Shown: piece after piece, positions 17,083 through 22,407 of the stretch | Position numbering within the stretch: the stretch's first letter is position 1 | How the letters are laid out: each line of letters starts with the position of its first letter | DNA from: an uncultured Fibrobacterota bacterium | Lineage (GTDB): Bacteria; Fibrobacterota; OXYB2-FULL-49-7; JAEUSG01 | Length of the DNA: 32,000 nucleotides | Assembly (NCBI GenBank): GCA_963831235.1 | Contig: CAWHPS010000035.1 | Coordinates: 44,725-76,724 of the forward strand | Direction of reading: 5' to 3' | Position numbers and translations under genes: made by a program | Notes under the pieces: generated by a model | The model's input: the letters and a program-made list of their open reading frames with translations, nothing else | What the model was told of the DNA's origin: nothing | Databases searched by the model: none

Positions 17083-17127
17083 TTGAAAATAAGATTGTGA
17101 TAATTTATATTTCGTTAAATGACGAAA
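17083..17127 (+). promoter_or_regulatory. Candidate arsR promoter (TTGAAA-N17-TATATT) with an overlapping inverted-repeat operator
   Basis: -35 TTGAAA at 17083-17088 and -10 TATATT at 17106-17111. The inverted repeat TTTCGT-N6-ACGAAA at 17110-17127 spans the -10 element and the arsR ATG (17119). There is no SD before that ATG. Confidence 0.4.
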
Positions 17128-17520
17128 CATAAAAATACCATATCGCGACCCGTTTCCAGGCCCTTTGAGAATGCATCCGGGTGCACAACCATAATTCTTT
17201 TTTCGCGCCTTGCTTACGCACTATCAGATCCAAACCGTTTGCGAGCGCTTCTTTCCCTTAAAGACGGCGAATTATGCGTCTGCAAAATCACGGAACTTTT
17301 ACGTCTTGCACCGTCAACTGTTTCCAAACACATGTCTGTTTTAAAAAGCAGCGGTCTTGTTGAATCCCGCAAAGAAGGGCGCTGGATATACTACAGGCTT
17401 CCGGTTAAATCAGCAAGTCCTGCTGTTCGGGATGCCCTTAAACTCGTCTTCTCTTGTACAGAATGCGATCCGATATTAGTAAAAGATCAGGCTGCCCTTA
17501 AAAAGATTTGCAGTTGCTAG
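17119..17520 (+). CDS. arsR: ArsR/SmtB-family As(III)-responsive repressor
   Basis: Winged-helix core LSDPNRLRALLSLKDGELCVCKITELLRLAPSTVSKHMSVLKSSGLVESRKEGRWIYYRL with the canonical ELCVC metalloid site. There are extra C-terminal cysteines (SCTEC, CSC). Confidence 0.85.
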   Translation: MTKHKNTISRPVSRPFENASGCTTIILFSRLAYALSDPNRLRALLSLKDGELCVCKITELLRLAPSTVSKHMSVLKSSGLVESRKEGRWIYYRLPVKSASPAVRDALKLVFSCTECDPILVKDQAALKKICSC

Positions 17521-17542
17521 TAAACAATCGCAAGGAGCATGT

Positions 17543-18619
17543 ATGTCAAATGCCTGTTGCGGAACAATGTCTAAAAATAATGGAACAGACACCCTTGCCC
17601 CTTCACCCTGGTCCATTGATTCCATCTGGAAATTTGCTGATTATTATGGTGCAATTGCTGTAAGGCTTTTTGACTCCAAAAGAAACAGCTATAAGGTCAA
17701 TCCGGGCCTGTACAAACTGGGCCATCCTGCACCCGACTCTCCTGTGTTTGCGTCTGCCAATTACAAATTAAGCTTTGATATCCTGCGTAAATCGCTCTCT
17801 AATATTGATTGCTGGATTCTTGTCCTAGATACCAAGGGAATAAACGTCTGGTGCGCTGCTGGAAAAGGCACATTTGGAACAAATGAATTGAATAAGCAGA
17901 TCATGCTTACCAATCTGCACAACAAAGTAACGCATCGTAAAATTATTGTGCCGCAACTTGGCGCATCTAATTTAAAGGCGCATGAGGTCAAAAAACTCAC
18001 GGATTTTCATGTTGAATACGGGCCTGTTCGGGCTCGGGATTTAAAGGAATATCTGAATAACGGTCATAAGGCATCTGCCAAAATGCGTGCAATCCAATTT
18101 CCAATGTATGATCGTTTTATACTTACACCAATGGAAATAGCACAAGCCTATAAACCTGTTTTAATTTTTCTAATATGCTCTATTTTCCTGACAGGGGTAA
18201 TCAAATCTAATCTTCAGGTAACACAGGTTTGGCGGCTAATGCTTCCAATTATTCTTGGAAGCCTTATAAGCCTTGCAGGAGGAGCATTTATTACTCCTCT
18301 TTTCCTGCCCTTTATTCCATTTCGTTCTTTTGCCTTGAAAGGTCTTTGGGTTGGCATTTTGTGCATTGGTATTTACCTTGGTTGTAATCCGGAGATTTTT
18401 AATTCTTTGCCGCTCTTCATTTTCCTCTGTATTATGGCGCCAGCTTTCAGTTCTTTTCTTGCGCTGAATTTTACTGGAGCATCCACATTCACCAATCCTT
18501 CGGGTGTTAAAAAAGAGATGAAGGCTTCAATCCCTTTCTATATAGGGGCTGCGGCAATTTCGCTTTCTTTACTTATTGCATTTTTCATACAAATCTGGAG
18601 GGCCAAATGGTATATATGA
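17543..18619 (+). CDS. hgcA: Mercury-methylation corrinoid protein HgcA
   Basis: AAGGAG SD. The diagnostic cap-helix motif GINVWCAAGKGTFG is present, with the Cys codon at 17852-17854. The N-terminal part is a CFeSP-like corrinoid domain and the C-terminal part a multi-TM domain containing LNFTGASTFTNPSGV. It is followed directly by hgcB. Confidence 0.9.
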   Translation: MSNACCGTMSKNNGTDTLAPSPWSIDSIWKFADYYGAIAVRLFDSKRNSYKVNPGLYKLGHPAPDSPVFASANYKLSFDILRKSLSNIDCWILVLDTKGINVWCAAGKGTFGTNELNKQIMLTNLHNKVTHRKIIVPQLGASNLKAHEVKKLTDFHVEYGPVRARDLKEYLNNGHKASAKMRAIQFPMYDRFILTPMEIAQAYKPVLIFLICSIFLTGVIKSNLQVTQVWRLMLPIILGSLISLAGGAFITPLFLPFIPFRSFALKGLWVGILCIGIYLGCNPEIFNSLPLFIFLCIMAPAFSSFLALNFTGASTFTNPSGVKKEMKASIPFYIGAAAISLSLLIAFFIQIWRAKWYI

Positions 18620-18912
18620 AAGATGTTACATCATTGCAATACAATGTTTCCTCTTGCAATGGTTGCAGCAGATGCACACAGGTTTGTCCAAGGAATGTTT
18701 TTGTAATGCAAGGCAATAAAGCTGTTCTTACAAGCAAAGACAAATGCATTGAATGCGGTGCCTGCATGAACAATTGCGCTTCAGGGGCTATTTCTGTCAA
18801 ACCTGGCGTAGGATGCGCTGCGGCCATGTTTGATGGACTCTTGCGGTTTGGGGACATGGAAAAGGGAACCTGCGGGTGCGAAAGTGATGATGATAACCGA
18901 GGCTGTTGCTGA
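18616..18912 (+). CDS. hgcB: HgcB, 2x[4Fe-4S] ferredoxin partner of HgcA
   Basis: ATGA start/stop overlap with hgcA (an alternative in-frame ATG lies at 18607). It has two CxxCxxCxxxC motifs (CNGCSRCTQVCP, CIECGACMNNCA), the conserved GVGCAAA and the C-terminal vicinal Cys pair (..RGCC-stop). Confidence 0.9.
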   Translation: MKDVTSLQYNVSSCNGCSRCTQVCPRNVFVMQGNKAVLTSKDKCIECGACMNNCASGAISVKPGVGCAAAMFDGLLRFGDMEKGTCGCESDDDNRGCC

Positions 18913-18929
18913 TACCAGGAAACAAAGTC

Positions 18930-20019: not shown

Positions 20020-20026
20020 GTTATAC

Positions 20027-20722
20027 ATGCAAAATACTTTGATTGCCACACTCCAGCAATGGGTTTCTCATCCGCTTGGGCTACTTATTGCACTTGCATT
20101 GGGTGCTGTAAGCGCATTCGCAAGCGCATGCTGCACCTTACCTGTCATGGGACTTCTTTTGGGCTATTCAGGAACAACTTCTAATGGTGAACACAAATCG
20201 TCTATTAAAACAGCTCTTTTGTTTGCTTTAGGAAGTACCCTGGCTTTAATGCTGGTCGGCGGTATTGCAGGATTTGTCGGGCAGGCAGCGCAAACCGGTT
20301 TAGGTCGTTATTGGAAGGTATTCGCCGGGCTGACAGCTATTATTTTCGGGCTTGCAACAATTAAAGTCCTACCTATCAGCCTGACACTTCCCGGACCTGG
20401 TAAACGAATAGCGGATCTACAAAACATAAGCCCTATTTTATTCGGCCTTATAATGGGTGGAGCAATTGCCGTTTGCTCGCTGCCCTGCAATCCAGGCATC
20501 TTTATTGTCATGGGCGCGGCCATACTTCAGGGAGAAATTACCCGTGCCATACTTTTGCTAACTGCATTTGCTGTTGGATTCAGTATTCCCTTGAGCACAT
20601 TGGTTCTGGGCTTGTCACTTGGAAAAGGCTTGGTAAAAACAAAAACCTTGGACAAAGTCATCCGACTATTTTCCGGCAGCATTCTTATAATCGTGGGGTT
20701 TTATCTTCTCCTATCATTATAA
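20027..20722 (+). CDS. DsbD/CcdA-superfamily six-TM membrane protein with a vicinal Cys pair in TM1
   Basis: I take the start at ATG 20027, 7 bp after the orf213 stop. The track start at 19913 overlaps the previous gene by about 100 nt. TM1 is [16 protein letters not shown] and TM4 is [12 protein letters not shown], with six predicted helices. Confidence 0.75.
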
Positions 20723-20739
20723 TACAACCGATCAGAACT

Positions 20740-21783
20740 ATGAATAATACGAAACAACTTCCTTTTCTTGATAGGTACCTGACCCTTTGGATATTTATTG
20801 TGATGGGACTCGGTATTGTCATGGGCAACTTTTTTCCGGAAATATCGTCCTTTCTCTCAAAACTCTCTTTGGGCACAACCTCAATCCCAATTGCAATTGG
20901 CTTAATTGTTATGATGTACCCTCCTTTGGCAAAGGTCAATTACCGCCGTATCGGAGAAGTATTCAGTGATCGCAAAGCACTATCGTTATCCCTGATACAA
21001 AACTGGCTCATCGGCCCCGTCCTTATGTTCCTGCTCGCAATCATCTTTCTGCGCGGGCAACCTCATCTAATGACCGGGGTCATTATTATCGGTCTTGCCA
21101 GATGTATTGCCATGGTCATTGTATGGAACAGTCTGGCAAAAGGAAACAGCGAATACGCGGCTGCGCTTGTTGCATTTAATTCTGTTTTTCAGGTTTTATT
21201 TTTTGCGTTTTATGCATGGATATTTGTTACAGTGCTCCCACCGTTGTTCGGCTTGAACGGATACGCTGTAAATGTTTCCATGAAAGATATTGCCATCAGT
21301 GTTGGCATTTACCTTGGAATCCCCTTTGCTGCTGGGTTTGTAACACGTATGGTACTGGAACCCATCAAGGGGGAAGAATGGTACACAACTAAATTCATGC
21401 CGCGAATCGGTCCTTTGGCGCTTATAGCGCTTCTTTTTACCATTTTCATCATGTTTGTTTATAAAGGTAATGCTATTATTTCCCTACCGTTCGATGTTTT
21501 ACGTGTGGCAATTCCTTTGGGGATTTATTTTCTTATCATGTTTTTCGGTTCATTCTTTGTAACTAGGAAACTAGGCATCAGTTATGAAGCTGCGGTCAGT
21601 CTTTCGTTTACAGCCGCGAGCAATAATTTCGAACTGGCCATTGCAGTTGCTGTGGGGGTTTTCGGCATTGCTTCGCAGGAAGCATTCGCGGCAGTTATCG
21701 GACCACTTATTGAAGTTCCTGTCATGATCGCACTAGTGAATGTAGCGCTCAAATTCAGACATTCGTTTGCAAAAATAAACTGA
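20740..21783 (+). CDS. acr3: ACR3-family arsenite efflux permease
   Basis: The start [25 protein letters not shown] is a typical Acr3 N-terminus. Also present are MMYPPLAKV, the conserved Cys context GLARCIAMV, and [10 protein letters not shown] near the C-terminus. The track start at 20473 was rejected as an upstream extension. Confidence 0.9.
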
Positions 21784-21816
21784 ATTTAAACTACGCTTCA
21801 AAAAAGAATTAAGGAT

Positions 21817-22407
21817 ATGCGGAAAAGTATAATAGTGATAATTGTTTTGGCAATTATCTTCCTGTGTACATTTCATACTTTACTTATGAGATCCATGTTT
21901 TCTTTTTTATGCGTAAACAAACCAGTTAATGCGAAAGTGCTTGTTATTGAAGGATGGCTTTCAGATCGGATGCTTAAAGAAGCTGCGGCCGAGTTTCATA
22001 GAGGAAATTATTCTTTTTGCCTTGTAAGCGGCAAACCCTATGGGGTCCGTTCACCGGCTTGCGCTATGATAGAGTTTGGTCTTGATACCCCTGTTGTCAA
22101 ATTTACTGAGGCCAAAACAAAATTAGGCCATAATACTTATTATATGGCGCTTGCAGCCCGAACATGGCTTCAGACTAATAATCCTGATATCACAACTCTC
22201 AACATTTTTACTGCCGGCCCGCATGGACGCAAATCATGGACAATAATGAAGCGAGTTTTCGGGTCAGGTTTTTCCATTGGTGTAATCTCTTCATCAATTG
22301 AACCTGAAGATGTCAATTTATGGTGGGGATCAATACGAGGTGTTTATAATATGATTAAATATGAAATCGGGTATATTTATGCTATGGTATGGCCCTTTGA
22401 CAGATAA
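21817..22407 (+). CDS. Membrane-anchored DUF218 (YdcF/ElyC-like) protein
   Basis: AAGGA SD, 33 bp after acr3. It has an N-terminal TM helix, then VLVIEGW...LVSGKP...IFTAGPHGRKS, which resembles the DUF218 layout. Tentative. Confidence 0.55.
   Translation: MRKSIIVIIVLAIIFLCTFHTLLMRSMFSFLCVNKPVNAKVLVIEGWLSDRMLKEAAAEFHRGNYSFCLVSGKPYGVRSPACAMIEFGLDTPVVKFTEAKTKLGHNTYYMALAARTWLQTNNPDITTLNIFTAGPHGRKSWTIMKRVFGSGFSIGVISSSIEPEDVNLWWGSIRGVYNMIKYEIGYIYAMVWPFDR

Follow-up and report, generated by a model that had tools for sequence, protein, structure and literature searches.

Mercury-methylation genes hgcA and hgcB have been described repeatedly in the company of arsenic-resistance (ars) genes. A 2020 study showed hgcAB with acr3, arsC and arsR on its flanks (McDaniel et al., mSystems, PMC7438021, Fig. 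6), and later accounts repeated the hgcAB-ars synteny and tied the presence of arsR to lower in situ expression of hgcA (PMC10349881; PMC11984097, Fig. 4c, Peterson et al. 2025). In Pseudodesulfovibrio mercurii ND132, the regulator ArsR2, which responds to As(III), As(V) and S-adenosylhomocysteine, controls hgcAB, and the pair is co-expressed with ars operons and induced by arsenic (10.1101/2022.10.17.512643). Here we analyze an hgcAB pair embedded among ars genes on contig CAWHPS010000035.1 of an uncultured Fibrobacterota bacterium. The window is the whole 32,000-nt stretch of this contig that was analyzed, and coordinates count from its first letter.

The locus consists of eight plus-strand genes in the order arsR-hgcA-hgcB-arsC(TGA)-orf213-ccdA-like-acr3-orf196 (Table 1). 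We consider it probable that these genes form one ArsR-repressed, arsenite-inducible polycistronic operon, a further instance of the recurrent and published association of hgcAB with ars operons. An initial annotation made from the sequence alone had reported eight co-directional genes separated by short gaps and overlaps, and every coordinate was borne out; gene order and family calls likewise confirm its placement of hgcAB, with an ELCVC-type arsR on one side and ars structural genes on the other. It had also seen neither terminator-like hairpins nor promoters in the gaps, and our scan found none in any intergenic gap of the array. We also weighed promoters or terminators internal to the array, next to hgcAB, and rejected them, as only intragenic consensus matches were present, at chance frequency. 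ACR3 passes the curated equivalog threshold of TIGR00832 (431 bits against a cut-off of 282.8).

The initial annotation had proposed counting how often hgcAB lies between ars genes, and this arrangement proved recurrent. When one genome of each GTDB species was scanned by pattern and tblastn, 596 or more hgcA loci emerged; of these, the 80 closest to the window HgcA were surveyed by phmmer, with window proteins as queries and flanks of up to 10 kb. Because this sample is biased to relatives of the window HgcA and under-counts arsB and arsM, the resulting proportions are rough. In 15 of the 80 loci hgcA is immediately preceded by an ArsR-family gene; arsC and/or acr3 occur on the same strand within about 1 kb of hgcAB in 13, and ars genes flank the pair on both sides in seven (L003, L031, L036, L039, L043, L044 and L074). 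All ArsC and ACR3 matches lie no more than about 1 kb from hgcAB, the rest of the flanks having none, so the clustering is far beyond chance. Queries with further ars proteins added L019 and L021 and revealed long ars clusters in Bacteroidales. Independent arrangements occur in four phyla, and lineages differ in where hgcAB lies relative to arsC, the commoner order in the survey being (arsR-)arsC-hgcA-hgcB-acr3. In L036 the genes run operator-trx3-arsR-o177-o143-DsbD_2-arsP-rhodanese-arsC-ccdA-like-hgcA-hgcB-acr3. The window's own order recurs on a metagenomic contig, L082 (arsR-hgcA-hgcB-arsC-orf190-ccdA-like-acr3), whose HgcA is 55-57% identical.

Control of the array was sought upstream of arsR. 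The sole promoter-like site ahead of the array, TTGAAA-17-TATATT, matches the consensus at 10 of 12 positions. Its -10 box ends 7 nt ahead of the arsR ATG and no Shine-Dalgarno sequence precedes that ATG, which suggests that the arsR mRNA may be leaderless. The TATATTTCGTTAAATG arrangement is likewise present in L082. An imperfect palindrome overlaps both the -10 box and the arsR start codon and can be extended to ATATTTCG-TTAAATGA-CGAAACAT. Its perfect form, ATTTCG-N8-CGAAAT, occurs eight times in 1.24 Mb of hgcA-flanking DNA and not once in 20 shuffles, and each perfect copy comes shortly before arsR, trx3-arsR or hgcA. Perfect copies stand at the equivalent arsR position in L082, L003, L015, L061 and L069, which belong to the window's ArsR clade and all carry GELCVC. 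Others precede trx3-arsR in L036 and L043, and one stands directly ahead of hgcA in L077, where a second copy with one mismatch precedes arsR. Because of this conservation upstream of arsR and hgcA, and the eight copies against none in shuffles, the palindrome probably serves as the ArsR operator. Most of the Bacteroidales copies (L036, L043 and L077 8866) have an 8-nt spacer of the form TAnnTTTG, which resembles the Bacteroidetes -7 promoter box.

As the initial annotation had it, the first gene encodes an ArsR with an ELCVC As(III) site, and both family models recognize it. We treated as R773-type an ArsR/SmtB helix-turn-helix protein with an ELCVC(D)LC alpha-3 containing Cys32 and Cys34, with Cys37 counted as dispensable; the window protein reads ELCVCKI, with equivalents of Cys32 and Cys34 but none of Cys37, and shares this motif with the ArsR proteins of L003, L061, L069 and L082. 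In an alignment it groups with ArsR proteins of Fibrobacterota-type hgc loci. Co-transcription under ArsR control is the most likely arrangement because a single promoter-like site and a conserved palindrome coincide at the arsR start, and the same palindrome precedes hgcA in L077. In the mechanism that we propose, ArsR dimers would bind ATTTCG-N8-CGAAAT over the -10 box and the arsR start codon, and binding of As(III) to the ELCVC cysteines would release them, allowing transcription of the whole array, the HgcAB pair included. The short gaps and overlapping stop and start codons would provide translational coupling. ACR3 would export As(III), and mercury methylation would simply be co-induced with the ars genes.

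The identity of the methylation pair was examined with curated models. HgcA scored 381 bits against NF040863, whose equivalog cut-off is 275, well above its scores with the HgcAB-like fusion model (186 bits) and CdhE (76 bits), and its corrinoid-binding domain matched PF03599 (CdhD) at 55 bits. The cap-helix motif NVWCAAGK occupies residues 101-108, with Cys104 as the cobalt ligand, and the columns from N101 to G107 are invariant in an alignment of 23 sequences. By Kyte-Doolittle hydropathy alone, about five hydrophobic segments span residues 199-352 at the C-terminus. These scores and diagnostic motifs exclude a corrinoid iron-sulfur protein paralogue, the alternative that the initial annotation had raised for the 358-residue product. 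HgcB passed NF040864 marginally (99.5 bits against a cut-off of 99); it contains two CX2CX2CX3C motifs (CNGCSRCTQVC and CIECGACMNNC) and ends in a Cys pair (...RGCC, then the stop). An upstream hgcB start, which would lengthen the overlap with hgcA to 13 nt, is as plausible as the one adopted here: the N-terminus that it gives, MVYMKDVTSLQY, matches MTYLKNVTSLQY of the L082 homologue, a protein that begins MTYLKNV. Judged by models and motifs together, hgcAB is a bona fide mercury-methylation pair. The N-terminus of the window HgcA carries a CC pair. Most HgcA proteins are stated to be selenoproteins with Cys-selenocysteine (CU) at this site (10.1101/2022.07.06.499078); in our biased sample, a crude scan with a simple classifier found an upstream Cys-TGA extension in one of the 80 HgcA genes and CC in 36.

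Table 1. Coordinates of features in the window and, where a locus is named, in comparison loci.
Feature	Position	Strand	Remarks
arsR	17119-17520	+	ArsR/SmtB repressor; HTH_5 54.8 bits, NF033788 87.7 bits; ELCVC alpha-3 motif
hgcA	17543-18619	+	22-nt gap after arsR; corrinoid protein; NF040863
hgcB	18616-18912	+	4-nt ATGA overlap with hgcA; 2x[4Fe-4S] ferredoxin; NF040864
Alternative hgcB start (ATG)	18607	+	13-nt overlap with hgcA
arsC	18930-19385	+	17-nt gap after hgcB; low-molecular-weight protein tyrosine phosphatase (LMW-PTP), thioredoxin-coupled type
TGA codon in arsC	18960-18962	+	catalytic Cys codon
Internal arsC start (AGGAG-N4-ATG)	18987	+	132-aa product
orf213	19378-20019	+	8-nt overlap with arsC; Cys-rich single-pass membrane protein
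ccdA-like	20027-20722	+	7-nt gap after orf213; CcdA/DsbD_2-like membrane thiol-disulfide transporter, labelled via relatives
acr3	20740-21783	+	17-nt gap; arsenite efflux permease; TIGR00832, SBF
orf196	21817-22407	+	33-nt gap; membrane-anchored, DUF218-related; last co-directional gene
Promoter-like TTGAAA-17-TATATT	17083-17111	+	10/12 consensus matches
Palindrome ATTTCG-N8-CGAAAC	17109-17128		overlaps -10 box and arsR start codon; one mismatch to ATTTCG-N8-CGAAAT
Extended palindrome	17107-17130		
Palindrome copies in other loci	L003 8745; L015 9031; L036 4484; L043 3753; L061 9439; L069 9557; L077 8866 and 9931; L082 127		
orf213 and ccdA-like pair	window 19378-20722; L091 2004-3349; L092 5315-6696; L082 2478-3752		
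acr3 of L082	3344-4313		split into N- and C-terminal pieces, middle missing
ISL3 transposase	6254-7231		
CusA/CzcA heavy-metal RND efflux operon	9058-14522	-	outer-membrane factor, adaptor, pump (TIGR00914, 1071 bits)
Small Cys/His-rich ORF	14595-14969	-	upstream of RND operon
ISKra4-like transposase, two overlapping ORFs	16221-16640 and 15038-16294	-	directly upstream of the hgc-ars operon
DUF6788 ORF	16647-16940		minus strand; precedes ISKra4-like transposase
Sigma-70 promoter	16975-16947	-	12/12 consensus matches
ISKra4-like element region	15038-16940 (to 16975 with the sigma-70 promoter)		178 nt from arsR

The initial annotation had called the ars operon complete, having read arsC through a stop codon. 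The frame is MENKLKILFL*TGNSCRSQMAEG, where the asterisk marks a TGA at the catalytic Cys codon (Cys10) of the CX5R P-loop (MENKLKILFL*TGNSCRSQ). This stop leaves the operon incomplete for the reduction of As(V), while sensing and export of As(III) are predicted to stay intact. With Cys put at the TGA, the ArsC product scored 132.6 bits against TIGR02691, under the cut-off of 174.3, and the Cys82 and Cys89 equivalents of the disulfide cascade are present (VITVCDDANETCP). An internal AGGAG-N4-ATG opens a 132-residue product that lacks the P-loop, and for this reason gene callers report that shorter product in two assemblies. TGA is an ordinary stop in the source organism, terminating hgcA, hgcB and acr3 alike. 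In the closest arsC relative that we found, L081, where an orf213 homologue comes next, ArsC is 83% identical and the catalytic codon is TGT; Cys occupies the catalytic position in 12 of 12 ArsC genes adjoining hgcAB in other genomes.

Two explanations of this codon were weighed, a nonsense mutation and selenocysteine (Sec). In the second, the TGA would be translated, giving a Sec-containing arsenate reductase of LMW-PTP type with a UTGNSCRS P-loop and leaving the operon complete. The TGA does align precisely with the catalytic Cys of all homologues, the rest of the reading frame is intact, and both further families of arsenate reductase and many HgcA proteins are known to contain Sec (PMC1088965, PMC13188914, 10.1101/2022.07.06.499078). 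In the cited accounts of selenoproteins, the arsenate reductase entries are COG1393/TIGR00014 (UxxS) and NF041106 (UxxC), neither of LMW-PTP type (PMC1088965, PMC13188914), so a Sec form here would fall outside the types that those sources describe. Among 241 million metagenome records, six matches had TGA in the exact arsC P-loop context, five of them unique. Further stops, frameshifts or deletions mark three of the five. The two otherwise intact genes, L086 (identical to L090) and L088, share the TGA at the same codon, which could make them rare Sec forms or fixed nonsense alleles; one of them recurs in two independent assemblies.

RNA structure past the TGA speaks against Sec. No fold resembling a selenocysteine insertion sequence (SECIS) was evident in the 60 nt past the TGA of the window and of the two intact cases (z = -0.13, 0.18 and 0.47 against shuffles), and no downstream structure is common to the TGA-bearing orthologues. 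The TGT relative encodes the local hairpin of 5 bp (ACUCC-UGUA-GGAGU) as well. Within the window, HgcA bears CC, not CU, and the known Sec site of HgcB is occupied by Cys; a 2026 review of prokaryotic selenoproteins gave no match for 'ArsC' or 'tyrosine phosphatase'. A tRNA scan of the 32 kb and an Rfam scan at gathering thresholds returned nothing in the window, and these 32 kb contain no gene of the Sec machinery (selA, selB, selC or selD). Given the TGT in the closest relative, the lack of a SECIS-like fold and the rarity and mostly degraded state of the metagenomic cases, the TGA is very likely a recent TGT-to-TGA nonsense mutation that inactivates the arsenate reductase, and we regard Sec as highly improbable. 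Gene order alone, this stop warns, does not justify calling such operons complete.

Several observations weigh against the operon model and the nonsense mutation placed within it. Counts of promoter- and terminator-like sites equal the shuffle expectation in a consensus-only scan, and the scan alone is weak on that account. The promoter was scored against the sigma-70 consensus, from which promoters of the FCB (Fibrobacteres-Chlorobi-Bacteroidetes) group may differ. The operator is deduced from conservation only, the window copy has one mismatch, and R773 ArsR has a third Cys (Cys37) that is missing from the window protein. The early arsC stop could cause polarity on downstream genes. As for the stop itself, the two assemblies that contain it possibly derive from the same reads, and sequencing error, like Sec, is a formal possibility.

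The genomic surroundings bear on a different account of how hgcAB came to lie here. A CusA/CzcA heavy-metal RND (resistance-nodulation-division) efflux operon and ISKra4-like and ISL3 transposases lie nearby, which places the hgc-ars operon in a metal-resistance neighborhood with mobile elements. The split ISKra4-like open reading frame (ORF) could represent a frameshifted or programmed-frameshift transposase; the DUF6788 ORF ahead of it is accompanied by a perfect sigma-70 promoter on the minus strand, and a small Cys/His-rich ORF sits upstream of the RND operon. From such a setting hgcAB might have joined ars operons by horizontal transfer, as a passenger of mobile metal-resistance islands, to be expressed independently of arsenic; the linkage would then be a product of co-transfer and not of common regulation or function. 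The variable position of hgcAB relative to arsC among lineages would fit this history, as would decay of the ars part in places, seen in the TGA of the window arsC and the broken acr3 of L082; the ars part of hgc-ars operons seems prone to decay. Passenger status is harder to reconcile with flanking gaps of only 22 and 17 nt, the overlap of hgcA with hgcB and gaps free of terminator- and promoter-like sites. It also sits poorly with the operator palindrome directly upstream of hgcA in L077, with independent arrangements recurring in four phyla, and with the arsenic induction of hgcAB in ND132 (10.1101/2022.10.17.512643). G+C is even throughout the operon, again unlike a passenger, and a recent insertion of hgcAB alone was rejected for want of any compositional sign. 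We judge the passenger account unlikely.

Another possibility concerns what HgcAB does. The initial annotation had suggested that the pair takes part in arsenic handling or is regulated by arsenic, with mercury methylation as a side reaction. Its regulatory half is well supported by our comparison of loci and by experiment in ND132; its functional half, that HgcAB handles arsenic, is speculative, and part of the published evidence speaks against it. As an arsenic enzyme, HgcAB might be a corrinoid methyltransferase acting on As(III) or another thiophilic metalloid. It might then be a working part of an ArsR-controlled anaerobic metalloid detoxification, with methyl transfer to As(III) or a thio-arsenical followed by export through ACR3 or ArsP. 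The residence of hgcAB in ars operons without arsM is compatible with such a role, and some of these operons carry the methylarsenite exporter ArsP (L031 and L036, with one nearby in L021). The abstract of the ND132 study describes the wild type as less sensitive to As(V) than an hgcAB knockout; in its summary, arsenic resistance is not significantly reduced when hgcAB is missing, and neither mono- nor dimethylarsenicals were detected in ND132 cultures (10.1101/2022.10.17.512643). We rejected ArsP as a pointer to methylarsenite made by HgcAB. It does not discriminate, because the ars operon of Fibrobacterota metagenome-assembled genome (MAG) L091 (GCA_043802925.1) has arsP with neither hgcAB nor arsM. 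We think it quite improbable that HgcAB is an arsenic-handling enzyme, and give the detoxification pathway built on it an equally small chance. Were it true, the ArsR operator directly before hgcA in some genomes would be a regulatory signature of that role.

The three accessory genes were traced through their relatives. Orf213 carries an N-terminal CCGPDCGC and a C-terminal GGCCPSG...C; it had no Pfam, NCBIfam or PDB-profile match, and its single-sequence AlphaFold model had a pLDDT (predicted local distance difference test) of 42. Its homologues adjoin a ccdA-like gene in L091 (63% identity), L092 (31%) and L082 (32%). The CcdA-like protein (231 residues, motifs ACCTLP and LPCNPG) has 1508 relatives, many annotated as CcdA or PF13386. 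The 'dsbD-like' and 'DUF218-like' labels of the initial annotation hold for homologues only: the window proteins themselves have no direct Pfam or NCBIfam match, at E<=10 in Pfam for the CcdA-like protein. PF13386 is found on relatives of 58-71% identity to the latter, the closest named one being a Fibrobacterota MAG protein (71%). PF02698 (DUF218) is carried by 12 of 27 sampled among 1086 representative homologues of orf196 (best E 7.9e-08), and the window Orf196 gave no Pfam match. No counterpart of orf196 is present in L082 or L091. In Geobacter sp. SVR the orf213/ccdA-like pair comes after arsA-arsD. Since the pair occurs in ars operons of L091, which lacks hgcAB, and of Geobacter, it is by its gene contexts a conserved accessory module of ars operons, independent of hgcAB.

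The native function and regulation of HgcAB bear directly on predicting environmental methylmercury production, and this locus offers a clean example of hgcAB immediately behind a canonical ELCVC ArsR and inside an ars operon. ATTTCG-N8-CGAAAT is a concrete cis element whose distribution could predict arsenic-regulated hgcAB in metagenomes. Co-location of hgcAB with ars genes and its arsenic-responsive control by ArsR are already published (2020, 2022/2023 and 2025); because this central idea is in the literature and partly tested, the window leaves the overall picture unchanged. We did not find the operator motif or the orf213/ccdA-like module in the hgcAB-ars accounts cited here, although no systematic search for either was made, and these two deduced features would be modest additions.

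Set beside the known systems, the window resembles environmental methylators of several phyla, in which arsR, arsC, acr3 or arsM flank hgcAB (PMC7438021, PMC11984097); common to both is an hgcAB pair with acr3, a thioredoxin-type arsC and a regulator of the ArsR type as immediate neighbors, all on one strand. It departs from their commoner order in having hgcAB directly after arsR and before arsC, and it adds the orf213/ccdA-like pair and an arsC stopped at its catalytic codon. As in ND132 (Gionfriddo et al., Applied and Environmental Microbiology 2023), hgcAB comes immediately after an ArsR-family gene, the genes being co-transcribed in that organism. The ND132 locus has no other ars genes, whereas the window has a full set in cis, and the four-Cys site of ArsR2 (Cys47, Cys49, Cys86 and Cys88) contrasts with the canonical ELCVC alpha-3 of the distantly related window ArsR. 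With canonical arsR-arsC-acr3 operons (R773, pI258) the window has in common predicted ArsR autoregulation, ACR3 efflux and an LMW-PTP ArsC. The operon of L091 runs arsR-orf216-ccdA-like-acr3-arsP-trx3, with further genes. Its products are 63% (orf213/orf216), 71% (CcdA-like) and 61% (ACR3) identical to those of the window, and ArsR only 42%; unlike L091, the window has hgcAB and an interrupted arsC after arsR. The arrangement in the window resembles that of an L091-type ars operon, with hgcAB-arsC added behind arsR.

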